Of a stretch of 64,000 nt of DNA, positions 20,888 to 43,920 are shown in pieces. How positions within the stretch are numbered: the first letter of the stretch is position 1; each line of letters begins with the position of its first letter. The DNA is from a virus. Its lineage: Duplodnaviria; Caudoviricetes. The translations under genes were made by a program, and so were the position numbers. The notes under the pieces are model-generated. The model saw only the letters and a program-made list of their open reading frames with translations, made no database searches and was not told the DNA's origin. The stretch is taken from IMG/VR virus record IMGVR_UViG_2639762904_000002, positions 3,973 to 67,972 of that record. One strand, written 5' to 3'.

Positions 20888-20889
20888 TC

Positions 20890-23001: not shown

Positions 23002-23271
23002 ATGAGTAAGTCTAGAACTGATGGCGATTCTGCCGAGGCCACTGTGGTTCCGGCGTTGAAGCCTGCGCCGTTGGGTTTTCCCGTTACTGCTGACGCGGTT
23101 GAGTCCATCGGACCAGCGCGTGTTTTTCGCGACAAGGTTTTCACCTCGCGGACATTGATCCTACCCGGCGGCGGGACGCTTCCTGTTGTTGCTGGTCGAG
23201 TTACCGCATGTGGTGATGACCAATTCGCGTTCTTGAAAGCGCATCCAGATCTGGAGCAATTGAAGGAGTAA
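23002..23271 (+). CDS. Hypothetical phage protein
   Basis: GGAG RBS, in tail operon. Confidence 0.6.
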   Translation: MSKSRTDGDSAEATVVPALKPAPLGFPVTADAVESIGPARVFRDKVFTSRTLILPGGGTLPVVAGRVTACGDDQFAFLKAHPDLEQLKE

Positions 23272-23276
23272 TCAGA

Positions 23277-24481: not shown

Positions 24482-24482
24482 C

Positions 24483-25172
24483 ATGAAAAGCCTATTGCCG
24501 ATCAACAGTACGCAGCTTGAACGGGCCATGGAGGCTACGTTTTTCGAGAAAACGATTGTCCCGCTTCGCGACCTCTACAACGCTGATACCTGCCCGGTGC
24601 ATTTGCTGCCGCATCTGGCATGGGCGTGGTCGGTGGATCGCTGGGATTACCGATGGACCGAGGCGACCAAACGCGCCGCCATCAAGGCCTCTTATTACAT
24701 CCATGCCCACAAGGGCACCATCGGCGCGTTACGCCGAGTGGTCGAACCGCTGGGCTATCTCATCGAGATTATCGAGTGGTTCAACATGAGGCCCGAAGGG
24801 ATCCCTGGCACCTTCGCGTTAAAGGTCGGGGTGCTGGACACCGGTATCACTGAGGAAATGTATCAGGAGCTGGAGCGGCTGATCGATGACGCCAAGCCCG
24901 TCAGCCGTCACCTGACTGGGCTGGCGATTAGCCTGGAATCCACAGGGGCTATAAACATTTTCGCAAGCATATCTGACGGAGAAGTTATTGATGTTTATCC
25001 GCCGGTACTTAGTGATATCGAGGTGACAGGTTTTATCGGAAACGGGATTCGAGAGTGCTCCATAGATGAAATAGAAGTTTATCCTCCTGCGCCTGAACCT
25101 ATCTCGGTTGACTGCTATGTCGGGGTGCCTGGTCGCGAACATTCCATAGACCATTTGGACGTATACACATGA
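24483..25172 (+). CDS. Tail protein I (P2 gpI)
   Basis: LPHLAWAWSVD, HKGTIGA, AKPVSRH. Confidence 0.92.
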   Translation: MKSLLPINSTQLERAMEATFFEKTIVPLRDLYNADTCPVHLLPHLAWAWSVDRWDYRWTEATKRAAIKASYYIHAHKGTIGALRRVVEPLGYLIEIIEWFNMRPEGIPGTFALKVGVLDTGITEEMYQELERLIDDAKPVSRHLTGLAISLESTGAINIFASISDGEVIDVYPPVLSDIEVTGFIGNGIRECSIDEIEVYPPAPEPISVDCYVGVPGREHSIDHLDVYT

Positions 25173-27052: not shown

Positions 27053-27060
27053 GAGTCGAG

Positions 27061-27438
27061 ATGACATACAGACTGACTGCTGATCCCGACACGGTGATTC
27101 AACTGCCGAGTGGAGCTACAGTTCCGAAGGGCCACCGGTTTTGGGTTGATTACGAAAAATGGTTGGCTGCTGGCGGTAAGCCGGAGCCGATTTTTACTGT
27201 TGACCCGGCAATGCCTGAAAGGGCTTGGCGTGATGCTGAAATTGAGCGCGTGAAATGGCTCAGGGAGCGGCATCGGGACGAGGTGGATTCTGCGCGGCCT
27301 ACCACTCTAACCGTTGAGCAATCGGGTGAACTTTTGGACTACGTTCAAGCCTTGCGCGACTGGCCGCAATCCCCCAAATTTCCCGCCTCGGAGTTCCGGC
27401 CAGATAAACCTGAATGGATAGAGCAGCAAATCCAATAA
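27061..27438 (+). CDS. Tail fibre assembly chaperone
   Basis: ERAWRD...YVQALRDWP. Confidence 0.85.
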   Translation: MTYRLTADPDTVIQLPSGATVPKGHRFWVDYEKWLAAGGKPEPIFTVDPAMPERAWRDAEIERVKWLRERHRDEVDSARPTTLTVEQSGELLDYVQALRDWPQSPKFPASEFRPDKPEWIEQQIQ

Positions 27439-27540
27439 CGCCCCGCACTGTCGGGGCGTTTTGCATTGCGCCACATGTAACACAAACACCCTCCCGGCCT
27501 CGCTTATGCGGGGCTTTTTCGTTTCTGGAGCATTAGCTTT

Positions 27541-28707
27541 ATGAGCTTCTTCCACGGCGTTACTACGACTGATATCAAGACAGGTGCGCGCACTATTTCC
27601 TTGCCCTCGTCTTCCATTGTCGGACTTTGCGACACATTCACCCCAGGCGTTCTCGGCGGCGGTACCGCCAAGGCCGGCGAACTCAAGTTGATCACCACCG
27701 AGCGCGAGGCTATCGCTGCCTTCGGTGCCGACTCGGCGATCACCAGGGCTTGTAAAGCGATCTATGCGAAGGCCAAGGCGGTGATCGTTGCCATCGGCGT
27801 GCCGAAGCTGGAAGACGCGGCGCTGCAAACCTCGGCGATTATTGGCGGCGTTCTGGCCTCGGGTCAGCGTACCGGCCTGCAAGCCTTGCTCGATGGCAAA
27901 AGCCTGTACAACGCGCAGCCGCGGCTGTTGATTGCGCCGGGTCACACGGCCACTCAGGCGGTCGCTACCGCGCTTGATAGCTTGGCGCAGAAGCTGCGGG
28001 CTATCGGCATTCTTGATGGCCCTGGCACCACGGATGAGGCGGCGATGCTTTATGCCGATAATTTTGGCAGTCGCAACCTGTTCATGGTCGATCCTGGCGT
28101 TCAGTACTGGGACACCGAATCCAGTAAGACAGTTGATGCCCCAGCCTCGGCCTGGGCGGCGGGCTTATTCGCCTGGACCGATGCTGAATACGGCTTCTGG
28201 GCTTCGCCGTCTAACAAAGAGTTCACCGGTCTCACTGGTACGACCAGGGCTGTCGAGTACCTGGACGGCGACGAGACGTGCCGAGCCAACCTGCTGAACA
28301 ACGCCAATATCGCGACGATCATTCGCGACGACGGCTATCGCTTGTGGGGTAACCGCACGCTGTCGAGCGATCCGAAGTGGGCGTTTGTCACGCGCGTTCG
28401 CACGCTGTTCATCCTAATGGATGCTGTGCAGGCCGGCCATAAATGGGCTGTTGACCGCTCGATCACCAAGACCTATGTCAAAGACGTGACGGATGGGCTG
28501 GATGCGTTCATGCGCGACCTCAAAGCCCAGGGCGCGATTATTAATTTTGAGGTGTTTCCGGACACCGAGCTGAACACTGCCAGCCAGATCGCCCAGGGCA
28601 AAGTTTATTGGCGCATCCGCTTCACCGACGTGCCGCCGGCAGAAAACCCGAATTTCCTTTTCGAAGTCACCGATCAGTGGATGACCGAAGTTCTTGAAGC
28701 AGCCTAA
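27541..28707 (+). CDS. Tail sheath protein
   Basis: FFHGV, WASPSN, GYRLWGNRT. Confidence 0.95.
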   Translation: MSFFHGVTTTDIKTGARTISLPSSSIVGLCDTFTPGVLGGGTAKAGELKLITTEREAIAAFGADSAITRACKAIYAKAKAVIVAIGVPKLEDAALQTSAIIGGVLASGQRTGLQALLDGKSLYNAQPRLLIAPGHTATQAVATALDSLAQKLRAIGILDGPGTTDEAAMLYADNFGSRNLFMVDPGVQYWDTESSKTVDAPASAWAAGLFAWTDAEYGFWASPSNKEFTGLTGTTRAVEYLDGDETCRANLLNNANIATIIRDDGYRLWGNRTLSSDPKWAFVTRVRTLFILMDAVQAGHKWAVDRSITKTYVKDVTDGLDAFMRDLKAQGAIINFEVFPDTELNTASQIAQGKVYWRIRFTDVPPAENPNFLFEVTDQWMTEVLEAA

Positions 28708-28719
28708 GGGGCCTAGTCA

Positions 28720-29223
28720 ATGATTCCTCAAACCTTGTTTAACACGAACCTGTTTGTCGACGGCGTGAACTTCGCTGGCGACGTACCGAGCCTTACGCTG
28801 CCCAAACTGACCACCAAGACTGACGAGTATCGCGCTGGCGGCATGGCCGGTGCGATTGAGATGGACCAAGGCCTGGAAAAAATGGAGGCGTCCTTTGTTA
28901 CCAAGGGCGTGCGCCGTGATTCGTTGAAGTACTTCGGTCTGGCCGATGGCACCGCTTTCAATGCGACGTTCCGGGGTGCCTTCAAGGGGCAGAAAGGGGC
29001 TGTAACGGCTGTGGTTGCCACCCTGCGCGGTCGTCTCAAAGAGCTCGATCTGGGCGACTGGAAAGCCGGTGACCCTGCCGAGATCAAGCACGCCGTAGCA
29101 GTCGCTTATTACAAACTCGAAATCGACGGGCGCCTCATGTACGAAATCGACATGGTCGCCGGTGTTCAGGTGATCGACGGCAAAGACCAACTTCTCGAAG
29201 TGCGCACCGCACTCGGCCTCTAA
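28720..29223 (+). CDS. Major tail tube protein
   Basis: LPKL...YRAGGM; follows sheath. Confidence 0.93.
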   Translation: MIPQTLFNTNLFVDGVNFAGDVPSLTLPKLTTKTDEYRAGGMAGAIEMDQGLEKMEASFVTKGVRRDSLKYFGLADGTAFNATFRGAFKGQKGAVTAVVATLRGRLKELDLGDWKAGDPAEIKHAVAVAYYKLEIDGRLMYEIDMVAGVQVIDGKDQLLEVRTALGL

Positions 29224-29237
29224 GGGACTAGATCCAA

Positions 29238-29837
29238 ATGAATAAAGCAACGTCCAAAGCAGTACCGGCTTGGCTATCACTCACTGCCCTTGCAGCCGTC
29301 GTAACGCTCACGCGACCAAGCAATGCCAACGGCGTTCTGGTCGAAACATTAACTTTGCGGGCCCCGCTGGTACGGGAAGTGCGAGCGGCCGACCGTGCCT
29401 CTAACGGCGATGAAGAACAGCGAGAGCTGATGTTGTTCGCGGGTTTGGCAGAGGTGGGTGTTAAGGATCTTGAAGGTCTGAAGCTGGCTGACTACCGCCG
29501 TGTTCAAGCCGCTTATGCACACTTGGTGCCGGATACCGACTATTCGGAATCAATGCCGTCGTGGCTGTCGGTCAACACTGATCGCGCCCAGGTCACCCTG
29601 ACCTGCCCAAGCGAAATCAATGGGGTATCGGTTGATACCTTGGCCCTGCGCTCCCCGACAGTGGGCGATGTGCGCGCGGCTAATCGTGACGCGGGCGGAG
29701 ATGACGAACAGCGGGAATTGATTTTGTTTGCCGCGCTTGCCGGTGCGCCTGTCACGGACCTGGAGGGCCTGAAGCTGGTGGATTTTAACCGTCTGCAGGC
29801 CGGCTATTTTCGTTTGGACCAAGACGACGGGGTTTAA
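29238..29837 (+). CDS. Tail assembly chaperone with two tandem gpE-like domains
   Basis: Duplicated LR.P.V..VRAA...EQREL.LFA.LA...DLEGLKL.D. Confidence 0.85.
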   Translation: MNKATSKAVPAWLSLTALAAVVTLTRPSNANGVLVETLTLRAPLVREVRAADRASNGDEEQRELMLFAGLAEVGVKDLEGLKLADYRRVQAAYAHLVPDTDYSESMPSWLSVNTDRAQVTLTCPSEINGVSVDTLALRSPTVGDVRAANRDAGGDDEQRELILFAALAGAPVTDLEGLKLVDFNRLQAGYFRLDQDDGV

Positions 29838-29853
29838 CCCTCACGTCATAAAG

Positions 29854-29949
29854 ATGGCCGCGAAACGTCTGGCGGCGGAAACAGGATTCTCCGCTGCTGA
29901 GATTTTGTCGATGCCCTTTGCAGAAATGGTGTGGTGGCTCACGGACTGA
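29854..29949 (+). CDS. gpE'-like short tail chaperone segment
   Basis: MAAKRLAAETGFSAAEILSMPFAEMVWWLTD between chaperone and tape measure. Confidence 0.65.
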   Translation: MAAKRLAAETGFSAAEILSMPFAEMVWWLTD

Positions 29950-29987
29950 GCCGCCTTCGATAAGGCTATCCAAATGAGGGCCGTGAC

Positions 29988-32900
29988 ATGGCGAACAAAA
30001 TCGCCCTCGGGCTGGTGATCGGCGGCGCCGTCAGTTCGACTGTCGGTGCTGCGTTTAAAGATGTAACGGGGCGCATCAAGCGTCTTGAGGCGGAAGGCAA
30101 CAAGGCGCGTGTCCTGCAGCGCACTATCGGTGACACCATTCGCCTGCGCGACGAGTGGAAGAAAGCCCACGACAGCGGATCACAGGGCGCGACCAAGTTG
30201 TTGGGCCGGTTGAATTCGAACCTCGATAGTTTGAAAAAGCAGGGAATCGAGGTCGGCCGACTGGAGAAAGCCTATCGCTCTATGGGGCAAACAGCCATCA
30301 AGGCGGAGCTCAAAGCCAAGGGGCATCAGCAGATCGATGCTGGTAAGACTGGAATGAAAAGCGCCGTCGGTGCCGCTGTTGTCGGTGTCGGCATGCTGGC
30401 TGTTCCGACCAAGGTCAGTGCGGATTTTGGGGCCATTGTTCGTGATATCGCGATCAAGGCCGGCATTGCCAACAAACCGCAAGAACAGGAGATGTCGCGC
30501 AAGATCATTGATACGTCGCGCGACACCGGCATGGCGCGTAACGATGTGGCCGATGTGGTTAACCAATTGGTTGGCGCCGGCATGGACTTGAGCAAGGCCC
30601 TGGAATATGCGCCAGTCGCGGCCAAATTCGTCGTGGGGCAAGGGTCGAGCGGTGTTGATACAGCGAAGATGATCAACGCGCTGGGTCAAAATGCCAAGAT
30701 CACAGATCCTAGGCAGATGCAGCAGGCCCTGGAAGCGATTGCCTACCAAGGGCAGGCCGGTAGCTTTGAAGCGGCCGACATGGCTAAGTGGTTTCCTGAG
30801 TTGTTGGCGAACATGGGCAGCCTCGGCATTACCGGCATGGATGCGGTTACACAGTTGGGTGCCATGCTGCAAGTGCAGATGAAATCTGCAGGCGGCGCCG
30901 ATGAGGCGGCAAACAATCTCAAGAACTGGATGGGCAAAATCGGCTCTGGCGACACCGTCAAGGCGTATGCAAAGGCGGGTATTGATTACAAAGGGTCGAT
31001 GCAGACCGGTTTGCAAAACGGTATGTCCACCCTTGAAACCAGTATGTCCCTGGCGCAGAAGTACATTCAGGCCACGGATCCGAAGCGCGCGGCGGCGATG
31101 GCTGAGGCGACGGCGAAGATCAGCAAGGAGTCGGACCCGGAGAAAGCCAAGGCCATGATGGCCTCGCTGGAAGAGTCACTGCGCACCGGTGACCTGTTCG
31201 CTGACATGCAGGTAAAGGCTGCGCTCTCTGCCTATATGCAGAACAAGGCGCTGTACAGCCAGCTAAAAAACGATTCGCGCGATGCAACGGGCATTCTCGA
31301 CAAGAACCTCAGCGAGCGACGTGAGGCGTCGTCGCAGAAGTGGGCCGAAATGGCCCAGTCAATGGATGACGCGATGCGCAGCGTTGGGGACGCCCTGCGC
31401 CCAATCACAGACACCGTGGCTGAAGCACTGACCAAAGTCACCAGGGGCATTACCTCGCTGTCTGACAGCGCACCAGGTGTGGTGACGGGCATTGCGGCGG
31501 TCGGGGGAGGGTTTGTCGCGCTCAAAGGGCTGCTCAGTTCGTTCAAAATCGCTAAAGGTTTGCTCAACGTCGCGCGGGGCTCGTTGGGTGGCAAGTCCGG
31601 CGAAGTGCAAAAAGTCTTTGTGACCAACTCCAAGGATGCCGCTGGTGGCGTTGGAAAGGGCGGCGAAGCGAAAGGCAAGGCCGGCAAAGCCCTGTCCTTA
31701 GTTGAGACTGGGCTCAAGGCTGTAGCCGCTCTCAAGGGTGAATCAACAACCGATGGTGAGGGAAAGGAAGAGAAGAAGTCCGGCAAGTTAGACATTGTCT
31801 CGACTGGCCTCAAAGTGATTTCGCTCGCTAAAGAAGCTGTGTCTGGGGATGACGGCGCGACGGGTGACAATGCGGCGGCGAATGGCGACGGCATTCAAAA
31901 GGTTTTCGTCGTCAACTTGGGTGCAGTGGGTGGGCCCGCTGGAGCATCAGGCGAAGCTCGTCAGCGGGGTCGCGGTTCAAACCGTGGTCCTTTGCGTCGT
32001 CGGCCGGCGCTGCGTCGGGCAGGTAGCTCGCTGCGTGCTCGTTTGCCAGTTCCGCGGCCTGCAGTACCGGTCGCGCGTCCGGCGGTACCACGGCCTGCAG
32101 CACCGGTCTCGCGTCCGGCGGTACCACGGCCTGCAGTACCGGTCGCGCGTCCGGCGGTACCACGGCCTGCAGTACCGGTCGCGCGTCCGGCGGTGCCACG
32201 ACCTGCAGTACCGGTCCCGCGCCCGGCGGTGCCACTGCCTGCAGCGCCGGCTCCGCGTCCGCCGCTGCCTCGGCCAGCAGTACTGGTCCCGCGTCCGCCG
32301 GTGCCACTGCCTGCCGCACCGGATCCGCGTCCACCGCTGCCACGGCCTGCGGTACCGGTACCACGTCCGCCTATTCCACCAGTCCCTATTTCAGGCGGGG
32401 CGATAGCGAAACTGGGCGGGGTTGTACAAGCGGTCGGTAAGATCGGCAAAGCCGCCAAGATGATACCTGGTGGCTCGCTGATGGAGGCCGGCGCCATGGC
32501 CTTCGATACCTATGAAAATGCCAAGACCAAGGACGAAAAGGCCGAGGGTTATGGCGCTGCTGCCGGCAATCTCGCCGGCACCATGGCCGGTGCTGCTGCA
32601 GGGGCGGCTATTGGCTCGGTGGTGCCAATCATCGGCACCGCTATTGGTGGCCTGGTAGGGGCTTACTTAGGCAGCATGGGTGGTTCGGCGCTGGGCGGTG
32701 CTGCAGGTAAGTCGTGGTTCGGAGGGGAGGACGAAAAGCCCGCGCCACCGGTGACGCCGTTGTTGATGGCGCCTCGACCGGGCCCAGCCATTCCAAGCTT
32801 GGCCGCCATGGGCAAGTCATTCAACCGGGCGGACGGTTCGGGTGCATTGCTGATGGCGACTGCACCGCAAGCGCCGGTCCTGGGTGATGTCGCTCGCTCT

Positions 32901-33143
32901 CTAGCCGTGTCAGCGCCGACCAAGCCAGCGGCTGTAGCGATCCAGCCCAAAGAGCCGGAAAAGCCTGTCCCGGCCAAAGTGGATCAGCAGTTTCAGTATT
33001 CGCTGAATATGCCGGTTACGGTGCAAGGGGATGTGAAAGACCCGCAACGCTTGGCGCAAGACCTCATGCCGCACATGCGGTTAATGATGGCTGATGCGGC
33101 GAAGCAAAACGCCGCGAAGCTATACGACGAACCGCACCTGTAA
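29988..33143 (+). CDS. Tail tape measure protein with Pro-rich repeat insert
   Basis: 1051 aa, Ala/Gly-rich, position. Confidence 0.92.
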   Translation: MANKIALGLVIGGAVSSTVGAAFKDVTGRIKRLEAEGNKARVLQRTIGDTIRLRDEWKKAHDSGSQGATKLLGRLNSNLDSLKKQGIEVGRLEKAYRSMGQTAIKAELKAKGHQQIDAGKTGMKSAVGAAVVGVGMLAVPTKVSADFGAIVRDIAIKAGIANKPQEQEMSRKIIDTSRDTGMARNDVADVVNQLVGAGMDLSKALEYAPVAAKFVVGQGSSGVDTAKMINALGQNAKITDPRQMQQALEAIAYQGQAGSFEAADMAKWFPELLANMGSLGITGMDAVTQLGAMLQVQMKSAGGADEAANNLKNWMGKIGSGDTVKAYAKAGIDYKGSMQTGLQNGMSTLETSMSLAQKYIQATDPKRAAAMAEATAKISKESDPEKAKAMMASLEESLRTGDLFADMQVKAALSAYMQNKALYSQLKNDSRDATGILDKNLSERREASSQKWAEMAQSMDDAMRSVGDALRPITDTVAEALTKVTRGITSLSDSAPGVVTGIAAVGGGFVALKGLLSSFKIAKGLLNVARGSLGGKSGEVQKVFVTNSKDAAGGVGKGGEAKGKAGKALSLVETGLKAVAALKGESTTDGEGKEEKKSGKLDIVSTGLKVISLAKEAVSGDDGATGDNAAANGDGIQKVFVVNLGAVGGPAGASGEARQRGRGSNRGPLRRRPALRRAGSSLRARLPVPRPAVPVARPAVPRPAAPVSRPAVPRPAVPVARPAVPRPAVPVARPAVPRPAVPVPRPAVPLPAAPAPRPPLPRPAVLVPRPPVPLPAAPDPRPPLPRPAVPVPRPPIPPVPISGGAIAKLGGVVQAVGKIGKAAKMIPGGSLMEAGAMAFDTYENAKTKDEKAEGYGAAAGNLAGTMAGAAAGAAIGSVVPIIGTAIGGLVGAYLGSMGGSALGGAAGKSWFGGEDEKPAPPVTPLLMAPRPGPAIPSLAAMGKSFNRADGSGALLMATAPQAPVLGDVARSLAVSAPTKPAAVAIQPKEPEKPVPAKVDQQFQYSLNMPVTVQGDVKDPQRLAQDLMPHMRLMMADAAKQNAAKLYDEPHL
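32052..32390 (+). repeat. In-frame tandem repeats (~36-bp unit, PRPAVPVARPAV and variants)
   Basis: Repeated CCGGCGGTACCACGGCCTGCAGTACCGGTCGCGCGT. Confidence 0.9.
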
Positions 33144-33152
33144 GGGGGGCCT

Positions 33153-33998
33153 ATGGCTTATATGGAACAGATGCAGTCGGGCTTCAAGTACCTGGTTGAA
33201 GCCGGGGAGGCTGGTAGACGTAGTGCTGAGGGCATGCTTGGGCCGGTCAACGGTGCAATAAGGGAGATAACGGGGGCAGCGGCCGAGCTGGAAAATATCC
33301 CGTTCGTGGGGCCTGCTGTCGGTGCCAAGCTCCAGCGGGTGATGCGCGGCGTGGATGCGGCACAGGCCAAGGCCGGCCAGGTGCTGGCTGTGTACAGTCG
33401 TGCGACACGGGGCGCCGCCGAAGTGCAGGAGCGAATGGGGGCGCTGAAGGAGCAGGCGGGAAAAGCTGCGACAGCGATCAACAAGGTCGCCGGAAAGGTC
33501 AATCCGTCGTTGGCAAACATCGTGCCCACCAGCGCATTTGCCGTGGATGCCACGCCGGCACCGGAAGCGGTGAAGCCATTTCCGCACCTGCTGATCATCC
33601 AGCCCAGGGATCCTAAGATTCAGCCGTACTACTTCAACTTAGATACGGCGGCCTTCGACGAATTGAGTCGCTCGACCGAATTCCGCTGGGCTTCACAGGA
33701 GCGGCTATCGCGGCGCCCTGCGCAGCAGGCCGTGGGCATGGGCGAAGAAAAGCTCACACTCAAAGGTACGATTTATCCCGGCTTCAAGGGTGGCCTCAAG
33801 CAGCTTGACACGTTACGCACCATCGGTGGGCGGCTGCAACCGCTCACTCTGACCACGGGTTATGGTGAGGTGATTGGCACCTGGTGTCTGAAGTCGATCA
33901 ACGAGGAGCAGGGCGCGCTGCTGCACGGCGGTATCCCGCGTAAACAAGTATTCACTCTGGAGTTCACGCGCTATGGCGACGACATGCAGAACGTCTGA
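33153..33998 (+). CDS. Tail protein gpU family with N-terminal extension
   Basis: RWASQERL..RPAQQAVG...PLTLTTGYG. Confidence 0.85.
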   Translation: MAYMEQMQSGFKYLVEAGEAGRRSAEGMLGPVNGAIREITGAAAELENIPFVGPAVGAKLQRVMRGVDAAQAKAGQVLAVYSRATRGAAEVQERMGALKEQAGKAATAINKVAGKVNPSLANIVPTSAFAVDATPAPEAVKPFPHLLIIQPRDPKIQPYYFNLDTAAFDELSRSTEFRWASQERLSRRPAQQAVGMGEEKLTLKGTIYPGFKGGLKQLDTLRTIGGRLQPLTLTTGYGEVIGTWCLKSINEEQGALLHGGIPRKQVFTLEFTRYGDDMQNV

Positions 33999-34179
33999 CG
34001 GGGACATGCTCGATGTCATATGCAATAACGTTTATGGGCACTTGAACGGCAGCGTCGAGGCAGTTCTGGATGCCAATCAGGGCTTGGCAGACGAGCCCCA
34101 GCCTTTCCGCGCTGGTGTGGTGATCCTGCTGCCGGATCTGCCAGCCCCGACCGAGGAAGGGATTAGCTTGTGGGACTGA
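33973..34179 (+). CDS. Tail protein X
   Basis: GDMLDVIC...VLDANQGLA...LWD. Confidence 0.9.
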   Translation: MATTCRTSDGDMLDVICNNVYGHLNGSVEAVLDANQGLADEPQPFRAGVVILLPDLPAPTEEGISLWD

Positions 34180-34272
34180 CTCCGAACGGCACCGCCTGCA
34201 GCCCGTTGCGTTAAGCGAAAGGAAACTTTGTATTCAGCCCGCCCTGTGCGGGTTTTTCTTTGGAAAAAGACC

Positions 34273-35319
34273 ATGACCCCCACTTTTCGTATCGTTGCCG
34301 ACGGTGCCGATATTACGTCCAAGATCAATGATCGACTGTTGTTACTTAGGACTTCTGACAAGCCGGGTATGGAGTCCGACGAGTTTGAATTGCGTATCGA
34401 TGACCGCGACGGCCAGGTGCAGTTGCCCCGGCGCGGTAGCTCAATCGAGATTCACCTGGGCTATGCCGAAACATCTTTGATGCGCCTAGGGCTTTACGCG
34501 GTCGACACGGTCGAAGTTTCCGGCCCGCCGGACACGATTGTGATCAAGGGTAAAGCCAGCGATATGCGCGGCAGTGGTAAGACTATCCGCAGCGGAAGCT
34601 GGGAGGATGCGCCGTTGTCGAAGATCGTGGCCGACATCGCGGCTCGAAATGGCTGGCAGGCAGGCTGTCCGGTGGCTACGAAGGTCGCTCGTGTGGATCA
34701 GCTCAACGAGTCCGACTTTAATTTCATCACGCGCCTGGCTAAGCAATACGACTGCACGGCCAAGGTCGCGGATGGCAAGCTGTTGGTGATGCCGCGCCAG
34801 GGAGGGCAGACAGCCAGCGGCAAAACGTTCGGTGCGATCACGTTGACCCGCAGCGATCTCAGTCGCTGGCAGTTCAGCTTAGGAGATCGCAATTCGCACA
34901 AGGCCGTGGCGACTAAGCATCAGAACAAAAAGGACGGCAAATTGGCGGTGGTCACCGTCGACAACGATGATGCGCCGGACGGCTTGCCGGCGGTGCACAC
35001 GGATCGGCATATCTATCCGAACAAGACCGCTGCGGAGTCAGCAGCCAAGGCAAGGTTAGCGGCATTCAATCGATCGACCGCCGACGTGCGTTTCGAGATG
35101 CCTGGCAGGACTGACATTTTTGCCGAGCGACTGATCAACGCCCAGGGCTTCAAGGTCGGACTGGATGGCGAATACCTGGCGGATTCAGTGGAGCAGGTGT
35201 TTACCCAGTCTGGCTGGTCGACCACGGTCGAGTGCAATGCCGGCAAGCAAGGCAAATCCAAGGGTAAGAAAAAGAAGGAAACGAAGCCGCTCAAGGTCGT
35301 GAGCGTCGAGAAGCTGTAA
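34273..35319 (+). CDS. Late control D/baseplate hub protein
   Basis: DQLNESDFNFITRLA. Confidence 0.9.
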   Translation: MTPTFRIVADGADITSKINDRLLLLRTSDKPGMESDEFELRIDDRDGQVQLPRRGSSIEIHLGYAETSLMRLGLYAVDTVEVSGPPDTIVIKGKASDMRGSGKTIRSGSWEDAPLSKIVADIAARNGWQAGCPVATKVARVDQLNESDFNFITRLAKQYDCTAKVADGKLLVMPRQGGQTASGKTFGAITLTRSDLSRWQFSLGDRNSHKAVATKHQNKKDGKLAVVTVDNDDAPDGLPAVHTDRHIYPNKTAAESAAKARLAAFNRSTADVRFEMPGRTDIFAERLINAQGFKVGLDGEYLADSVEQVFTQSGWSTTVECNAGKQGKSKGKKKKETKPLKVVSVEKL

Positions 35320-35367
35320 TGCAATCCACCGCCGCCTGAGTGCGGTATTTTTTTGTCCGGAGTTTTT

Positions 35368-35931
35368 ATGACGATCACTGAACAACAGCTACAACGCATC
35401 ATGCCAAACGCCCGCCGCCAAGCGGGCGTTTTTGTATCTGCCCTGAACGCGGCAATGGCGCATCGGCAGATCAATACACCGAAACGCCAAGCTGCTTTCC
35501 TGGCGCAGCTTGGTCACGAGTCCGGTCAACTGCAGTACGTCCGCGAATTGGGTGGGGATCAATACCTGAGTAAATACGATACCGGCACTCTGGCTGCCAA
35601 GCTTGGTAATACCCCAGCTGCAGATGGTGATGGTCAACGCTATCGTGGCCGAGGGTTGATCCAGGTAACCGGGCACGATAACTACCTGCGCTGCAGCCTG
35701 GCACTGTTCGGGGATGAGCGATTGTTGCGCACTCCCGAACTGCTCGAGCAGCCGCAATGGGCGGCAGAGTCGGCGGCGTGGTTCTGGTCGGTGAATGGGT
35801 TGAATGCGCTCGCGGACCAGGACCAGTTCAACACGATCACTCGCCGGATTAACGGCGGCCTTAATGGCCTGGAGGATCGGCTGCAGTTGTGGGCCAGGGC
35901 GAGGGCGGTGTTATGCGTCTCTTCGACCTGA
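35368..35931 (+). CDS. Glycoside hydrolase family 19 endolysin
   Basis: FLAQLGHES, YRGRGLIQVTG, INGGLNG. Confidence 0.93.
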   Translation: MTITEQQLQRIMPNARRQAGVFVSALNAAMAHRQINTPKRQAAFLAQLGHESGQLQYVRELGGDQYLSKYDTGTLAAKLGNTPAADGDGQRYRGRGLIQVTGHDNYLRCSLALFGDERLLRTPELLEQPQWAAESAAWFWSVNGLNALADQDQFNTITRRINGGLNGLEDRLQLWARARAVLCVSST

Positions 35932-36455
35932 TTCCTGCGCAGTTTCGAATCGCTGTCGTCGGCGGCTTGTTGCTGATGGTCGCCGCCGGATCCGCAGCGT
36001 TGGCCTGGACAGCGCAGAAGTGGCGTTATGGCAGCGTGCTGGAGCGGCAAGCCAGGCTGCAGGCGGACACCCTCAACGAAATATCCCAAGCTTCTGCTGC
36101 TCTGCAGCGTTCAGAGCAGGACAAGCGCCTTGCCCTGGAGCTCCGCCTGCAGAACAAAGACGAAACCCACTACAAGGAATTGACCGATGAGCAAATCAAG
36201 CAGGCTCGTCTGCGTGATCGCCTGGCTACTGCTGATCTGCGGCTGTCAGTCGTACTCGCCGCCACCGAAACCACCGGCAGCTGTTCAGTGCCAACCACCA
36301 CCGCCACCGGCCGCGTGGTTCATGGCGCCACAAGAGCCCAACTTGACCCAGCGCATGCTCAACGAATTATCGGAGTCACCGATGCCGGCGACCGAGGATT
36401 GATCGCCCTGCGGGCCTGTCAGGCTTACGCAAAAGAAGTTTCTACACCGAAGTAA
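35913..36455 (+). CDS. Rz-like i-spanin
   Basis: N-terminal TM, coiled coil, ALRACQAY. Confidence 0.85.
   Translation: MRLFDLIPAQFRIAVVGGLLLMVAAGSAALAWTAQKWRYGSVLERQARLQADTLNEISQASAALQRSEQDKRLALELRLQNKDETHYKELTDEQIKQARLRDRLATADLRLSVVLAATETTGSCSVPTTTATGRVVHGATRAQLDPAHAQRIIGVTDAGDRGLIALRACQAYAKEVSTPK
36187..36402 (+). CDS. Rz1-like o-spanin lipoprotein embedded in Rz
   Basis: Lipobox LICGC then Pro-rich segment, alternate frame. Confidence 0.75.
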   Translation: MSKSSRLVCVIAWLLLICGCQSYSPPPKPPAAVQCQPPPPPAAWFMAPQEPNLTQRMLNELSESPMPATED

Positions 36456-36570
36456 AAGGAGCGGCCGGGCAGGATGCGTCAACATCCAACCCGGCCACCT
36501 TCCCCGCAGATCGTCCCTGCAAGTCCAGCCAAGGCTCCTGCTTCGTGCACAAAGCGGAGCGAGCCTAGCA

Positions 36571-36586
36571 CTGTTTATCCATACAG
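36571..36586. promoter_or_regulatory. LexA (SOS) box upstream of adenine methylase
   Basis: CTGTTTATCCATACAG (CTG-N10-CAG). Confidence 0.7.
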
Positions 36587-36604
36587 CCAAGGTCTTGCTT
36601 TTTT

Positions 36605-37399
36605 ATGTCTACACCCATCGTCCCTTGGATGGGCGGCAAACGCCGCCTGGCCGACCGCCTTATCCCGCTCTTCCCGCCACACGAATGCTACGTTGAAGTC
36701 TTTGCCGGCGGCGCCGCGCTCTACTTCATGCGTCCCCAGGCAGCGCCTGTTGAAGTTCTTAACGACATCAATGGCGACCTGGTCACGCTGTACCGCGTCG
36801 TGCAGAACCATCTGGAAGAATTCGTCCGCCAGTTCAAATGGGCGCTCAGTTCCCGCCAGGTGTTCGAGTGGCAAAAGATGACCCGCCCGGAAACCCTCAC
36901 CGACATCCAGCGCGCCGCCCGTTTCTTTTACCTGCAGCACCATGCCTTCGCGGGCAAAGTGACCGGGCAGACGTTCGGCACTGCAACGACCGGCCCGGCC
37001 ATTAACCTGCTGCGGATCGAGGAAAACCTGTCTGCAGCGTGGCAGCGTTTGTCCGGCACTTATGTTGAAAACCTGGGCTGGCTTGAATGTGCCGAGCGCT
37101 ACGACCGTGCCCATACGTTCCACTACATGGATCCACCTTACTGGCAGACCGCCGGCTATGGCGTGGATTTTCCATTTGAGAATTACGAGCGCATGGCCGA
37201 CTTTATGCGGCGCTGCAAAGGCAAGGTGATGGTCAGCATCAACGATCACCCTGATATACGGCGGGTGTTTGAGGGGTTTCACTTTGAGATGGTGGACATT
37301 CGATACACCACATCCAACCAACGACAAGGAAAGAGTGAGATTAGTGGTGAACTGGTGATCATGAACTGGGTGCCAGCCGCATTGGGAGGACTGTTCTGA
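36605..37399 (+). CDS. DNA adenine methyltransferase (D12/Dam-like)
   Basis: WMGGK, EVFAGG, NDIN, DPPY. Confidence 0.92.
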   Translation: MSTPIVPWMGGKRRLADRLIPLFPPHECYVEVFAGGAALYFMRPQAAPVEVLNDINGDLVTLYRVVQNHLEEFVRQFKWALSSRQVFEWQKMTRPETLTDIQRAARFFYLQHHAFAGKVTGQTFGTATTGPAINLLRIEENLSAAWQRLSGTYVENLGWLECAERYDRAHTFHYMDPPYWQTAGYGVDFPFENYERMADFMRRCKGKVMVSINDHPDIRRVFEGFHFEMVDIRYTTSNQRQGKSEISGELVIMNWVPAALGGLF

Positions 37400-37404
37400 T
37401 AGCC

Positions 37405-38106
37405 TCAAAAATTCTTGGATGGCACCGGCAGCAGTAGATCAGCTCCATGGTTTTTCACATTCCCCACTGCTTTGCCAACGGCATACCACTCAAAGTCCTC
37501 CACAGGCTGGCAGCATTCCTTTGCTATTTCCTCGGCGCGGGCTGGAGTAAGGCTGGGATCGATCCATTCCCTGGCGTGCTCGGGTGTCAGCACCAACGGC
37601 TTGCGGTCGTGGATGTCCACCATGCCCTGGTCACTGGCGGCGGTGATGATCACGAACCCATCGCCGTCGTGGGGATCCAGGCCAGGATGAACTTGGGCAA
37701 GCGCGCCAAAGAACATGCGTTTCTGACTCTTCAGGCGAATGAAGTAGGGTTGCTTTCTCTTCGGTTCGTCAGGGTCTTTGACCCACTCGTACCACCCTTC
37801 ACTCGGCACCAGGGCTCGGCCATTCGGCCAAAGTTGCTTAAAAAACTTTCCTGTGGTGACCGTCTCTACACGTGCGTTAATCGGGTCGGGGCGTTTGCCC
37901 TTGGCCCAGAACGGCGCCCATCCCCATTTGACTGCATCGATATGCAGCCCAACCTCTGCGGTGTGAAGCAACTGAACTCGTGTCGACGGAGCGACGTTGT
38001 AGCGATCAATTGGCTGAGCGTCATAGCCGCTGAATAGCTCTATTTGGGGACTTAGTTCTTCAATGAAGATCTCCATCCCTTCGTACTGCACAAATCGTCC
38101 GCACAT
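37405..38106 (-). CDS. SOS response-associated peptidase (SRAP/YedK family)
   Basis: MCGRF, YNVAPS, INARVET, YEW, IHDR.P. Confidence 0.93.
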   Translation of the reverse strand: MCGRFVQYEGMEIFIEELSPQIELFSGYDAQPIDRYNVAPSTRVQLLHTAEVGLHIDAVKWGWAPFWAKGKRPDPINARVETVTTGKFFKQLWPNGRALVPSEGWYEWVKDPDEPKRKQPYFIRLKSQKRMFFGALAQVHPGLDPHDGDGFVIITAASDQGMVDIHDRKPLVLTPEHAREWIDPSLTPARAEEIAKECCQPVEDFEWYAVGKAVGNVKNHGADLLLPVPSKNF

Positions 38107-38170
38107 ACGCCTTCTCCGTCTGTCGAAATCCCCTACAGAAAAATTGACCGCAAGCGTCCTACAAAGTTAA

Positions 38171-38186
38171 CTGTACATTCGTACAG
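38171..38186. promoter_or_regulatory. LexA box between SRAP and umuD
   Basis: CTGTACATTCGTACAG. Confidence 0.8.
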
Positions 38187-38206
38187 TGCATGTAAAAGGC
38201 CGCATC

Positions 38207-38239
38207 ATGAGCTTCACCATTTTAGGTCCTATCGCCGAC
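38207..38239 (+). pseudogene. umuD: 5' stub of umuD/rulA-like gene
   Basis: MSFTILGPIAD after a LexA box, then fused to transposase sequence; umuC remnant lies downstream. Confidence 0.55.
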
Positions 38240-38710
38240 GCGGGTTATACCGGGGTCGAGAAGCGCGAAGAGCACGAGGGGCGTGAGGTTATTTGGCAGA
38301 TTGCAGCCCGGCGCAGCACTTATAAAAGCATGGAAAACAGAGTGCCTTGTACAAAGCGATACGCAGATCGAGAAAGCCAAGGCTCAGGTTCGTGAGAAGG
38401 TCGAGCACCCGTTTCGGGTGATCAAGCGCCAGTTTGGCTATGAAAATGTGCGCTTTCGAGGGGTGGCCAAGAACACGGCTCAGATGGTGACGTTGTTCGC
38501 CCTGTCAAACCTATGGATGGCGCGTCGACATTTATTGGCGGGCACAGGAGAGGTGGGCGTGTAATGCAGCAAATGGGAGCTGCGAAGCGCCTTACTGCGC
38601 CCGGAAGGGCTGAAAAATGAAGATAATGGACCAAATTTCGACCGGGGTCGTTTTTTGAAAAGGACTGACGGCTCGATAGCCGGAAAACATCCGGCTATTT
38701 CAGACCATCC
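38234..38710 (+). mobile_element. Truncated, frameshifted IS5 remnant (3' half plus right end)
   Basis: ADAGYTGVEKR, KVEHPFRVIKRQFGY; terminal TTCAGACCATCC followed by TTAA. Confidence 0.85.
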
Positions 38711-38746
38711 TTAACTATCACTCATCACTTAAGGCCGGATACAAAA

Positions 38747-41467
38747 ATGCCATTATATAAAGACAAACAAACGAAAAGCGAGAAAGATACCCCACATAAA
38801 AACACAGTAAATCTAACTAAAATTGGTGGAACTGAAAATGCTAACCTCGCAAATACCAGGCCGGACAATTGGATAATTAGCTTCTTAAAAAGTAAGTATG
38901 GGAATGACACATCGCTCGGGGAGAATACATACAATTTATCGACGGCTAAGCCGTACAAAACAATCCAAGAAATCACAAAAGACCTTCAAGAAAATAATCT
39001 TGCGCCCCCCGTTTTTATTATGATTGACATGCAGCGACTAAAAAATGTTAGTTCAGGATTAAAAAAAATTCTATCAAGAAAAAACAACATCAGAACAAAC
39101 GCAAAAACTGAAAAAAATCACCTTAAAACACTTGAGTTCGCAAAAGAAAACAAACTAAGCATAATCGATGTGAATTATTTGTACAGCGGCTTTTACGGAA
39201 TGCCAAAGAACAAAACCCTTGTGCAACTTGCAAACGAAACACGTACTTACTCCACGCTTAGGCACGCTATCAGGTCAGCTCCTAATAACTGGAGAATGAT
39301 TAAAGATAGCGAAAGTATTTTTAACTCGAGCATTAATATTTCGCCCAATGATATGGAGCAAATAGAAAACTCAGATAATATTTTAAGCATCGAGCAATTC
39401 ATTGAAAAATTTCCATGCAACCCAGTCGTGCTAATGGGTCAATTAGAGGATGTGTGTGTTCGCCAAACTGCTGAGAGCTTCCTTTTAGAAGGTAGAACTG
39501 TATTAGTAAGCCAGGATTTAGTTATTGATCGCAACAATGAAAATCATATTAGTGGAGTCACGAACAATATAGATACTTCTTGGGACTACTTAGCTAAAAA
39601 CACAGGATCCTCATCAATATACAGAGGGAATTTGATTTTATTAAAAAAAGTAAAACTGGCAGAAAAAATACTGGATCTTCAGCGCTCACCACTCTCATTC
39701 TCGCCTAGTACAAGTAGAAAACGTGAGATTCCTGAAATCGAGCTCGAGGAGACAATAGACATTCAAGAAATAACCGGTGGCTTAGCTCGCCTGAGTTTTG
39801 AGAGTATCACTGAGTGTGGCGTATTGAAACCGGCTGTCAAAGAGAGCATTCTTATAAGCACAAGTGATAGGGCTATCTCAATGGCAGGTAATGCGGCGGA
39901 GGTCAGCTCTCAATCTGACGATGAGTTATGTAAACACGCCATAGTATTTAATAAGCAGCCTAATGGACTAAAGCGCCCAGAGTATGAAAGAGCCCACGGC
40001 CTGCCAGCGGGATGCCTATCACCATATGTCACCTTATCCGGATCGAATCTCTTAGGTTTAGCACGTACCTATGCTGAAAATAAAATAAAATCATCTACAG
40101 TGAAAGCCGAGGCGAGTATGTGTTCACCTAATATGGAGGGTGAAAACCTCAATTCTCATCTGGCGGTGCAAACAAGCTCAGTAGTAAGAGCATTGCAGAG
40201 TGTTGCGGATAAGTTTCTGCCTCAAAATATTGAAAAAAACATACAAAATATCCTGAGTGAAATTTCCAGTATCGTAAGATTAAATGACAGCCCTTATTCT
40301 AAATATAAGGCTCTAGCACTAACTCATTATGATGTGCTGCTGACCAATTGTTGTGTCGACGTATGCCGTTTCACTAAAGATAGAAATTTTTCACCCGAAC
40401 TAAGGGGCTCGCTATTTAAATCCATGAGCAAGTTTATGATTGACGCTGCCAAGAATCTGGATGCTGCCTGGGGTGGTAATACTCTCTCTACGGTGGTCAT
40501 GTTGTCGAATGGTTTGGACAATAGTCTGATTACGGATACGCTCCGAAGTAATATGAATCGCTTTGACATTTTTGGAAGACCCGAAACGCTTGTCGGCGAA
40601 ATAAATAAATACCTTGACAAGGTTGTAAAAGGCACAGCGGGAAGCCTTGAATCCTCAATTAATGCTATTCTCGTGTTAAGTCAAAGAGGCTTCTTGAAAA
40701 ACCTTAGCCTAAGTGATCGTGAAAATTTCATGCGATTAACTAAAGCATTTGGAATTAACGGCTCGCAGGCCTATGTACGGCCTTCCTCACACAGAAAGTA
40801 TCTTCAAAACTTTGGAGAAAACTTACTAAAACTCCAAGAGGAGGCTATATCAGCCCACAATTGTAACGCTTTAATCGAGAACCCCGTGCTAAAGTATCGT
40901 GAGGGATTTAGTTCGGGAGAAGAACCAAAAAAGGTTAGTGTTAATCCATTTGATTATATGTTTGAGAGGTTGCAACCACACTTTGCGGAAAATGATTATC
41001 TATATCAGCGTTCAAAGAACTATAAAGAAACATTGTCTCAGAATCACCGGGAGATTAAGCACCGAGCAGCAGTTCGGCATGGGAAGTCGAAAGAGCTTCT
41101 TAGGGACCAAGAGATATCAAACAATCAGAACAACATGATTCGAGAAGAGTCTCTCAAAACTGCTCATATATCTCAACAGAAAACAGAAAAAACCTTAAAC
41201 CCTATTGCTTCATTTACTGCATCTAAATCCGCCTTAACATATAAATCTGCTTTTGCGGCCAGCTCTTTTTATTCCTCTGGCCTGAGCAGACCTATTTCCA
41301 AGATGTCCGACGCGTCCCCGGGTCTTGCTGGGATGGGGACCGTGAGCGCTCTTTATGGATTGAGTGAATCGAGGAATGCTCCCGCTCCGAGTTACTCGCC
41401 CCCTTCACGCTTGCGAGGATTGGCGGTGTTGCACGATCCACAGTTCCTTGAAAGGTGGGACCACTGA
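38747..41467 (+). CDS. AT-rich 906-aa protein with N-terminal isochorismatase-like cysteine hydrolase domain
   Basis: MIDMQ, IKDSESIF, MGQLEDVCVRQTA...G..VLV..D match the Asp-Lys-Cys pattern; remainder unrecognised. Confidence 0.7.
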   Translation: MPLYKDKQTKSEKDTPHKNTVNLTKIGGTENANLANTRPDNWIISFLKSKYGNDTSLGENTYNLSTAKPYKTIQEITKDLQENNLAPPVFIMIDMQRLKNVSSGLKKILSRKNNIRTNAKTEKNHLKTLEFAKENKLSIIDVNYLYSGFYGMPKNKTLVQLANETRTYSTLRHAIRSAPNNWRMIKDSESIFNSSINISPNDMEQIENSDNILSIEQFIEKFPCNPVVLMGQLEDVCVRQTAESFLLEGRTVLVSQDLVIDRNNENHISGVTNNIDTSWDYLAKNTGSSSIYRGNLILLKKVKLAEKILDLQRSPLSFSPSTSRKREIPEIELEETIDIQEITGGLARLSFESITECGVLKPAVKESILISTSDRAISMAGNAAEVSSQSDDELCKHAIVFNKQPNGLKRPEYERAHGLPAGCLSPYVTLSGSNLLGLARTYAENKIKSSTVKAEASMCSPNMEGENLNSHLAVQTSSVVRALQSVADKFLPQNIEKNIQNILSEISSIVRLNDSPYSKYKALALTHYDVLLTNCCVDVCRFTKDRNFSPELRGSLFKSMSKFMIDAAKNLDAAWGGNTLSTVVMLSNGLDNSLITDTLRSNMNRFDIFGRPETLVGEINKYLDKVVKGTAGSLESSINAILVLSQRGFLKNLSLSDRENFMRLTKAFGINGSQAYVRPSSHRKYLQNFGENLLKLQEEAISAHNCNALIENPVLKYREGFSSGEEPKKVSVNPFDYMFERLQPHFAENDYLYQRSKNYKETLSQNHREIKHRAAVRHGKSKELLRDQEISNNQNNMIREESLKTAHISQQKTEKTLNPIASFTASKSALTYKSAFAASSFYSSGLSRPISKMSDASPGLAGMGTVSALYGLSESRNAPAPSYSPPSRLRGLAVLHDPQFLERWDH

Positions 41468-41487
41468 GCCTAGGCTCTGTACGAAAG

Positions 41488-42050
41488 GTCGCGGTAGGAA
41501 TGGCAGTCGCCTGCCACCCCCCGCACAGATCCGTACGTGCAGAATTACCGCATATGGCTCCTGCCTTGGGTTTTGACGCCGAAACGAGTTATGGGATAAG
41601 GATGCATTGTTAGCTCACGCGGATACGGGATGAACAACCTTGCAAGCGCAGTCATGCGCTCCCAATTCAGTCGGTGTCGCTGACTCCGTCGTTTGAGGGC
41701 CTGCCTCCAGGCTCCGATAACTTCACGGCGAAAAGCATCAAGCCGTTTTGTATTACCGGGCACATGGTAGTAATTGCAGTAACCCGTAAACAGTCGATTC
41801 AGCCACTTTCCGATCACCGGAACCGGTTCGTGCCTACGCTTATGCAGTTGTCCGCGTATCTCTTTGAGTGTTGCTCTCATACGCTTGGCGATGGTCACCC
41901 GTCCGACCTCGAACATCCCATTCTTGGCTTAACTACAGAAATGCGTGAACCCGAGGAAGTCGAATGTTTCTGGTTTTCCTTCCCCACGCTTCTTGCGATC
42001 CTCCACCGCGAACCAGCCAAACCGTAGCAAACGTGTTTTCTCTGGATGTT
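41488..42050 (-). mobile_element. Group II intron 3' remnant (RT end, maturase X domain, RNA domains V-VI)
   Basis: HPEKTRL..FG, ETFDFLGFTH, GYCNYY, RRSQR; in-frame stop at 41929; D5 GAGCCATATGCGGTAATTCTGCACGTACGGATCTGTGCGGGGG and end CCTACCGCGAC. Confidence 0.88.
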
Positions 42051-42348
42051 TGCCATGCGGTACATAAGGCAATACTTCTCGTACAGAGTCGAGAGATGTT
42101 GCTTGGTTTTCAGGCATCGCGTTGCACTCTGAAATGCCCAAAGCTCTGACAACGCCAAGGCAATTTAGCCCAGCGACTATGGATGGGCGAGCATCCCATG
42201 CGCTCTTATTTCGATTTAACGCTGCCCATGGACAAAAAGAAGTATTTCGCACAAGAAAATATTGGTGCCCATGGGCGTATGATGTTCTGCCGAAACCTTG
42301 TAATACAGAGGCCTACAGGGTGTCCATAGGCAGCAACCTTACCCTTAT

Positions 42349-43389
42349 ATCGACGAGGCATTCGCCGATCTGACCGGTGTCGGTGGTTTGGATGCGTTAG
42401 GCCGGCAAATCCGGGCCCAGGTACTTCGCTGCACCGGCATACCTGTTGGTGTTGGTATCGCTCATACAAAGACCCTGGCGAAGTTGGCAAACCACACCGC
42501 GAAGCGCCTGCAATCGCAGACCGGTGGTGTGGTCAATATCACCGACCCGGTTAAGCGGGACTGGGTGCTGCGTAATACGGACGTGGCGGAGGTGTGGGGC
42601 GTTGGCCGAAAGATGAAACTTCATCTCGGTACGATGGGCATAAGGTCTGCAATGGACTTGGCTAAGGCGGACCCATGGACGCTCCGCAAGAAGTTCAGCG
42701 TTGTGATCGAGAAGACGGCCAGGGAGCTGGGCGGCACGCCTTGCTTGGAGCTGGACGAGCCGGATCCGCCAAAGCAGGAGATCTGCTGCAGTCGCATGTT
42801 CGGCCAGCGGCTGACGGAGCTGCCGCCAATCAAAGAGGCGGTGGCCACCTACATGATGCGAGCTTCTGAGAAGCTTCGCGCCCAGAACTCGCTGTGCAAG
42901 AAGGTGCGCGTGAGCATCCGCACCGGCATGTTCAATCCTGAAGAGGCGAAATACGCCAACGGTGTAGTGGTAGACATGCCATACCCAACTGATGACGTTC
43001 GCCTACTCACCCAGGCGGCGGTAGGGGCGCTTGATCGTTTATTTCGACCAGGCTTCAAATACAGCAAGGCCGAGGTAATGCTGATCGACCTATGCCAGCC
43101 TGGCGAGTACACCGATGACCTGTTCGCTAAATCACAACCGGCAGAGGCAACACGGGTGATGACAGTTCTGGACCAAATCAACGAACGGTGGGGTAGGGGG
43201 ACATTGCGATCAGCCAGCGTGCCCGTCAACCCTGAATGGGGTATGCGGCGTGAGATGATGAGCCAGAGTTATACAACGCGGTTGGATCAGCTTTGGAGTG
43301 TTGAATGTAGCGGTGACAGATCGTCAGACGGGAAACGATTGGAATGGGGCAAAAATGGGGCAAACCATACGCCAATCTATGCCCCCTAA
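42349..43389 (+). pseudogene. umuC: 5'-truncated Y-family polymerase V subunit (umuC/rulB)
   Basis: Begins at IDEAFADL; TKTLAKLAN, WGMRREMMSQSYTT; N-terminal catalytic region missing. Confidence 0.88.
43344..43364 (+). repeat. ATGGGGCAAA direct repeats, putative integrase arm-type sites
   Basis: Copies at 43344 and 43355, third at 43553. Confidence 0.55.
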
Positions 43390-43476
43390 TGCCCAATATG
43401 CATTTATGCAACCTGACGTGGAAGAGCGTCACGGCCAGCAACCACGGGTCTATCCCCCAAGATCTGCTAGATACTC

Positions 43477-43524
43477 CTACACAATCGGGGTGTGGGAGGA
43501 CAGGTCTGAAGTGTTTTTACTCAT
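43477..43524 (-). pseudogene. mutS: Orphaned 5' end of mutS at the prophage att junction
   Basis: MSKNTSDLSSHTP then IV-stop where MutS continues MMQQY; location and orientation fit the mutS-tailocin-cinA locus. Confidence 0.8.
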
Positions 43525-43737
43525 TGGGTAGTAGGCAAATTCGTTGAAAGTGATGGGGCAAAGGGGGCGCTTGGCCCAGCATTTTTTGCGATGGCGGCAA
43601 GGTTAACACGCGAGGTCGGGGGTTCGCAGGTCGCAAACGGATAGGTAAAAAGCAAAAGCGGTGCGGCCCCGACATCCACCACTAAAGGAGCGGCGCCGCC
43701 ACAGGTTAGCGGTTACCAGCCTTTTCTATTTCGCGGC

Positions 43738-43920
43738 TTACTGAGTATTAACCGGCGAATCCAACACTTTCACCACATCATCAACCACCGCCTTGACCAT
43801 TCCCTGCAAGTAATGCGAAGCCCAGGCATAACGATCCGTCTCCTTGGTTATCGCCGCATCTTCTGCGAGTAGCTTGGCGACGTGGAGGAGATTGGAGGTG
43901 TGGTGCAAAGCGTTTTGCAA
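43738..43920 (-). CDS. DUF3077-like small protein, possibly 5'-degraded
   Basis: GVSLQNAL..TSNLL...RYAWASHYL..MVKAVVDD. Confidence 0.55.
   Translation of the reverse strand: MQNALHHTSNLLHVAKLLAEDAAITKETDRYAWASHYLQGMVKAVVDDVVKVLDSPVNTQ

Follow-up and report, generated by a model that had tools for sequence, protein, structure and literature searches.

A prophage within mutS of a fluorescens-group host very probably supplies a replacement mutS start

Introduction

Phage attachment sites are found in the 3' ends of tRNA genes and in icd. There the element carries a copy of the gene end that is displaced, and the target stays functional. The prophage described here differs from these cases in that the 5' end of a gene is replaced. 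Hence the start codon and the signals for transcription and translation must come along with the element.

In Streptococcus pyogenes the phage-like SpyCI element sits at the 5' end of mutL, a gene of mismatch repair. Integration of SpyCI is reported to interrupt expression and cause a mutator state, and excision is reversible. Our prophage occupies the same kind of position. Unlike mutL with SpyCI, the target gene is rebuilt by the element, with an ORF that is intact from a phage start.

Mobile elements within mutS itself have been described by Chu et al. (2017, mBio, PMC5296598). They report insertions within the HTPMMQQ motif of mutS in Beta- and Gammaproteobacteria, including Pseudomonas putida F1. 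The element brings a new start and a promoter region and leaves the start of host origin orphaned upstream. Related integrases adjoin mutS in hundreds of Beta- and Gammaproteobacteria, and some of the elements are prophages, as is ours. In the integrated state of Vibrio splendidus 12B01, mutS is functional from the start and promoter that the element provides. Excision in this strain leaves a 2 bp deletion and produces hypermutators. Excision has also been detected in P. putida F1, E. coli 536 and B. multivorans CF2, there with no scar (PMC5296598).

By site and layout our prophage belongs to this published class, of which it is a real but ordinary case. As in the elements of Chu et al., the insertion is in HTPMMQQ, an orphan start lies at the far end, a start with its upstream region is supplied, and the integrase gene adjoins mutS. 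In contrast to those cases, this is a complete, 45 kb, myovirus-type prophage, and the host belongs to the fluorescens group. In the literature beyond PMC5296598 we found no such arrangement described for fluorescens-group prophages; Table S2 of that paper may list the host group. To the class it contributes a well-resolved Pseudomonas example, in which a 17 bp core, candidate arm sites and a cargo slot between integrase and start are seen, and an estimate of prevalence.

Between mutS and cinA, fluorescent pseudomonads have a hotspot for prophages and tailocins (Mavrodi 2009, PMC2647930; Loper 2012, PMC3390384). The elements in these papers are set between the two genes, and the parts of the papers cited here mention neither an insertion within the gene nor a replacement start. 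Our prophage lies in the same neighbourhood, with a PrtR-like repressor gene and tailocin-type baseplate genes to the right of its junction.

Results

The prophage and its contents

We analysed a stretch of 64,000 nucleotides (the window), which corresponds to bases 3973-67972 of a provirus record of 67,972 b. A further 3,972 b of the record lie to the left of the window. Of the host genome, the analysis covered this provirus record. The prophage is 44,904 bp long, and the record is classed as a provirus with a completeness of 100. The features discussed below are listed in Table 1.

Table 1. Features of the prophage, its junctions and the adjoining host DNA (window positions unless the record is named)
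Feature	Position	Strand	Remark
Part of the prophage in the window	1..43483		Remainder left of the window: int, most of xis, phage-supplied mutS start, attL
Excisionase gene	record 3850..4047; its first 75 nt (N-terminal coding part) are window 1..75	-	
SRAP (SOS-response-associated peptidase)	37405..38106	-	Pfam SRAP, E 2e-49
umuC, 5'-truncated	42388..43389	+	About the first 100 residues missing; Pfam IMS from profile position 115 of 148
Two tandem TGGGGCAAA boxes, 11 nt apart	43345..43364	+	Phage arm, ~125 nt from core
17 bp core, minus strand TCCTCCCACACCCCGAT	43484..43500 and record 2552..2568		Identical at both junctions (alignment)
Orphaned native mutS start	43477..43524	-	attR junction; 13 codons, then I-V-stop out of phage DNA
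Native mutS upstream region, stranded	43525..43656	-	One further TGGGGCAAA box at 43554-43562
DUF3077, first host gene past the junction	43738..43920	-	

The window holds genes for an S24 repressor, a VapE-type primase, terminase, portal, sheath, tape measure and a GPD-type baseplate hub protein. A further protein has a Glyco_hydro_19 (chitinase class I) domain and is possibly the endolysin. The prophage is a complete temperate myovirus-type phage. It appears to match no described phage, because a megablast search of window positions 1-24000 against phage records gave short matches only, covering 5-8% of the query.

The sole close phage-record match in these left 24 kb is MT837188.1, an unannotated 7.5 kb record named 'Bacteriophage sp.'. 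Two pieces within window positions 3184-7490, about 8% of the 24 kb query, match it at 88.7% identity. The early region also contains a full transposase gene of the IS4/IS5 family (4456-5205).

An orphaned mutS start at the right junction

At the right end of the prophage, a minus-strand ATG at 43524 opens MSKNTSDLSSHTP, which is followed by I, V and a stop. The original prediction had placed a broken mutS start here, flanked by repeats, exactly where the phage genes end, and all three parts are found as described. The last phage-side ORF, the umuC fragment, stops about 90 nt before the junction. Plus-strand copies of TGGGGCAAA lie on both sides of the start, at 43345, 43356 and 43554.

To the right of the break the sequence is that of a native mutS 5' region. 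We searched window positions 43497-44392 against 301 genomes of the genus around one related genome, 167 of which have some match. Many of the matches are restricted to the first 130-170 nt of the query, at 85-97% identity, and the similarity to native mutS 5' regions ends near query position 160. Window positions 43497-43656 are thus 85-97% identical to the DNA just upstream of mutS in many of these genomes. Because of this upstream match, and because the same 13 codons are joined to mutS in 14 loci of relatives (see below), we identify the stub, on sequence grounds, as a true mutS start and no chance ORF.

Could the stub still be a chance ORF or an assembly chimera? Its small size is the one point in favour of such a reading, which we consider scarcely credible. 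About 160 nt at 85-97% identity to native mutS 5' regions in many genomes argue against it, as do the same type of junction in an independent genome and the presence of the other junction in DNA runs from several studies.

A rebuilt mutS at the left junction

The DNA to the left of the window holds the gene body that belongs to the orphaned start. Here mutS occupies the minus strand, with its ATG at record position 2592 and its stop in the first bases of the record. The encoded MutS has 863 aa and all five Pfam domains, MutS_I to V. From its start it reads MNKQISDLSSHTP, then MMQQYW. The start codon and 13 replacement codons, 10 of which are identical to those of the host, come from the phage and continue in frame into the body of mutS.

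The integrase gene lies directly upstream, with 46 nt between its stop and the phage-supplied mutS ATG on the same strand. The integrase gene is within 300 bp of mutS, as in the mutS-inserted elements of Chu et al. (2017). The integrase has 414 aa, with an Arm-DNA-bind_2 (PF12167) and a Phage_integrase (PF00589) domain. The excisionase (65 aa, phrog_539, E 1e-13) overlaps the start of int, and both genes are full length. A catalytic domain, an N-terminal arm-binding domain and an excisionase are what characterises a lambda-type tyrosine integrase system.

The core that is shared by the two junctions spans mutS codons 9-14, that is, the codons for S-S-H-T-P and the first two bases of that for M. 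The insertion therefore falls within the HTPMMQQ motif. Integration inside the 5' end of mutS, which had been predicted from the right junction alone, is confirmed by the core at both junctions and by the mutS body beside int. The prediction had also put the native start more than 43 kb from the gene body (the true separation is 44.9 kb) and had proposed to look left of the window for an integrase, a second core fused to the mutS body and a replacement start. All of these are present.

Taken together, the phage integrated in mutS very probably supplies a replacement 5' module, so that an intact MutS is still encoded. We propose that a lambda-type tyrosine integrase, together with the excisionase, acts by site-specific recombination, with the crossover within the 17 bp core. 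The attachment site of the phage would hold the module between int and core. This module would consist of two GCCCC boxes at -47 and -36, the start codon and 13 codons. Integration would fuse it in frame to the body of mutS and yield the 863 aa MutS. The host start and about 130 bp of upstream DNA would be left without function at the opposite end of the prophage, and a precise excision would bring the native start back in frame with mutS.

What looks like the interruption of a mismatch-repair gene would then be a repaired one, and such lysogens should not be annotated as mutS-deficient. The swapped promoter and first 13 codons may change the level or the regulation of MutS, and this is the point of real interest.

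Native sites in relatives

Of the best-scoring loci, which are no random sample, 21 contain the core. In 14 of the 21, the native upstream region is followed by MSKN(T/S/A)SDL(S/A)SHTP and then MMQQYWRLK, uninterrupted and in frame in every case. With the native start joined to mutS, these 14 loci are, as judged from their sequence, empty sites. One locus, L041, from an independent genome, has the same type of junction as our prophage. Five have a different junction, which belongs to a second integrase family.

In the remaining locus, L042 (G002:C26, minus strand near 1482), a related element has at its far end an orphan mutS start that has decayed, its 13 codons being interrupted by stops. 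This decay suggests an old, fixed insertion.

The in-frame empty sites bear on a switch of the Vibrio type. There the integrated state would be neutral, and imprecise excision would leave a frameshift scar in mutS and create hypermutators. Such a switch has been shown experimentally for V. splendidus 12B01 with its 2 bp deletion (PMC5296598). Unlike in that strain, the core of our prophage is repeated perfectly over 17 bp and shows no trace of a 2 bp scar, and the reading frame is kept at each of the 14 uninterrupted native sites seen in relatives. Excision is also free of scars in the three other strains named above (PMC5296598). For our prophage we regard this kind of switch as highly improbable.

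Two ideas about the history of the native site were tried and rejected. Stacked ancient integrations at mutS find no support in four complete empty-site genomes: between mutS and recA we found no older orphan mutS start, and the genome's own mutS start alone matched. Nor does the native upstream region appear to derive from an integrase 3' end: a profile built with nhmmer from 19 int 3' ends matched 0 of 19 native upstream regions, even at E 1000.

The replacement start among integrase relatives

An integrase search of genome contigs gave 38 related loci with 66-93% identity in the best segment. They come from records of Pseudomonas, Stutzerimonas, Ectopseudomonas, Metapseudomonas and Azorhizophilus. 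Each of the 38 encodes a replacement start of this type, such as MNKAISD.S.HTP, with mutS downstream on the same strand; in one of them the contig stops just past HTP. Such conservation would be expected of a layout that leaves mutS functional.

In 17 of the 38 loci the start comes directly after int. In the other 21 a gap of 1.3-3.8 kb separates the two. The gap DNA has a low GC content (42-52%), and its longest ORFs are mainly on the opposite strand (20 of the 21 gaps measured). PIN_8 proteins account for 3 of 10 gap ORFs that were scanned, and the other ORFs have no Pfam hit. Whether or not there is a gap, the final ~65 nt upstream of the ATG are conserved in all 38 loci. This variable cargo slot, from the end of int (~5230) to the mutS ATG, is seen in L003-L020, L022, L026 and L033.

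Very small elements also occur between an orphan start and a rebuilt mutS start. One spans about 5.7 kb (L014, 1006-6718) and another about 3 kb (L037, 1508-4482); the latter contains an integrase fragment only.

In the sample of 301 genomes of the genus, 19 have the strict module pattern, 20 have the integrase (E 1e-40 or better) and 16 have both. The prevalence is thus about 6-7% of the species genomes sampled in the genus. These tallies, like that of the matches to the mutS upstream region, include one genome flagged as unpublished (G154), on which no claim depends. In a sample of 401 genomes of the class, three hits at 60% identity or more adjoin a rebuilt mutS start, and three hits at 31-32% do not. 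The DNA similarity of int to E. coli consists of a 129 nt match to an integrase beside rspB, not mutS, and is uninformative as to a link with the mutS elements of E. coli.

Expression of the rebuilt mutS

The original prediction saw in this locus an excision-controlled mutator switch. Integration would cut mutS from its promoter and start, MutS would be low and mutation faster in lysogens, and excision would restore repair. The native start and its upstream DNA are indeed 44.9 kb away, and SpyCI elements at mutL are reported to work in this way. Furthermore, promoter scans of the mutS strand detected no sigma-70 consensus promoter in the phage-supplied DNA, which could also speak for a silenced gene; the same scans detected none upstream of the native start and are uninformative.

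However, the in-frame phage start yields the intact 863 aa ORF. A non-functional module would hardly be conserved in 38 of 38 loci from several genera. The same arrangement is published, and the integrated V. splendidus element is described as giving a functional mutS (PMC5296598). We therefore do not uphold the switch, and consider low MutS in the lysogen very unlikely.

We return to the replacement module as the presumed source of mutS expression. Read-through from int is no general solution, because in some loci int and module are kept apart by cargo of mainly opposite orientation. It would be most economical to place the promoter within the conserved module itself, and we infer that the module drives adequate mutS expression.

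Four RNA libraries were compared as contigs, which reveal neither transcript ends nor levels. Library X15 has a 165 nt contig of depth 2.4 that is identical to record positions 2537-2701 and bridges the 3' end of int and the phage-type mutS start. This is a weak hint of a transcript across the phage-type start, as the contig is shallow and could be DNA carry-over. Libraries X16 and X18 have deep contigs with the start of the second integrase family, and X20 has the native start. These three cover the body of mutS and then other 5' ends, so that the absence of int cover in them is uninformative. The phage-supplied upstream DNA may have a quantitative effect on the mutation rate.

GCCCC boxes in the attachment-site arms

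The window contains four copies of TGGGGCAAA, compared with 0.91 expected; four were reached in 1 of 100 shuffles. Two of them form the tandem pair of the distal arm, and a tandem pair about 125 nt beyond the core is present in four of five attR junctions examined. In the int-proximal arm, GCCCC boxes stand at -47 and -36 of the replacement start in 37 of 38 rows. We regard the tandem GCCCCA boxes in both arms as candidate arm-type integrase binding sites, with the pair at 43345..43364 as a putative P' arm.

A similar arrangement exists in another host genus. The closest integrases in phage records are those of the Aeromonas phages pAEv1818 (42% identity) and phiARM81mr (41%), and both phages have GCCCCA-type tandem boxes beside int, as here. 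The free genome of pAEv1818 (L071, 3700-3960) shows xis-int, a box pair, a short mutS-like ORF next to int and a second box pair. Since a free phage genome has a mutS-like start, the module is phage-borne before integration. Just past the second box pair of pAEv1818 lies a umuD gene.

GCCCC boxes also occur in native fluorescens-type upstream regions, where 18 of 19 rows have them at about -44 and -35. These native boxes could be relics, mimicry or captured sequence. One locus (G099, C3:567707-567800) is a hybrid, with a native-type spacer and a phage-type start. From the near-identical offset of the native boxes, this hybrid and the second integrase family, one may argue that native mutS promoters could be relics of integration. 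The phage 5' module may then rewire mutS regulation, and mobile elements may repeatedly overwrite the mutS starts of the genus. We judge this extended reading quite unlikely. If true, lysogeny could set the level of MutS in step with the state of the phage.

A second integrase family at mutS

In the five loci with a different junction (L051, L053, L056, L059 and L063), the native start runs five codons further, through MMQQY, and then breaks. The body of mutS lies 35-57 kb away in these five genomes (mutS ends L081-L085). The supplied starts are short: MTDLSSHTP in three genomes, MSDLSSHTP in one and MESLSSHTP in one. In two of the five the short start comes directly after the integrase. The integrase of this family has Phage_integrase as its sole domain, and BLASTP shows no significant similarity to that of the first family (E 0.85). 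The shifted crossover of the second family fits the remark in PMC5296598 that the precise location varies.

Can the prophage still excise?

We infer that the element still excises. Yet the prophage contains IS material, so the ability to excise is not assured. Alternatively, then, the prophage is fixed and can no longer leave, and the module has become the permanent mutS promoter and start of the strain. An IS5-family transposase in the early region and IS fragments near the right end are consistent with this, and the decayed orphan start in L042 demonstrates that such elements can become fixed. In our prophage, however, int and xis are both full length, the record is rated complete, and the orphan start is undecayed, with up to 97% identity to native starts. 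A fixed prophage is therefore unlikely, although less so than either kind of mutator switch, and an element that can still excise is the reading that we prefer.

SOS-type genes and the right flank

The original prediction also listed LexA-boxed umuDC and SRAP genes at the right end of the phage. The SRAP gene is there, with a clear Pfam match. The umuDC operon is not: we find a 5'-truncated umuC, and no S24-type umuD near it in the window. The position that umuD and the 5' part of umuC would take is occupied by an IS5-type fragment, an ORF of 906 aa and a weak maturase-like ORF. A regular-expression search gave palindromes at 36571, 38171 and 50162, which we take to be LexA-box-like by their resemblance to the consensus; the one at 38171-38186 is upstream of SRAP.

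The IS5-type fragment (38186-38564) adjoins SRAP and corresponds to the C-terminal part of a transposase. The 906 aa ORF (38747-41467, plus strand) lies inside an island of 37-43% GC at the right end of the prophage and has no Pfam or PHROG match. The maturase-like ORF (41545-41916, minus strand) has a weak, sub-threshold match to a group II intron maturase domain (E 7e-4). An Rfam search of 36000-45000 found no family, and so no group II intron RNA.

Beyond DUF3077 come host cargo and, from about 50.2 kb on, the PrtR-like repressor together with tailocin-type baseplate genes. The cargo at 44393-48881 codes for a D-2-hydroxyacid dehydrogenase, an RraA-like aldolase and a protein of 895 aa that has a partial match to PEP-carboxylase.
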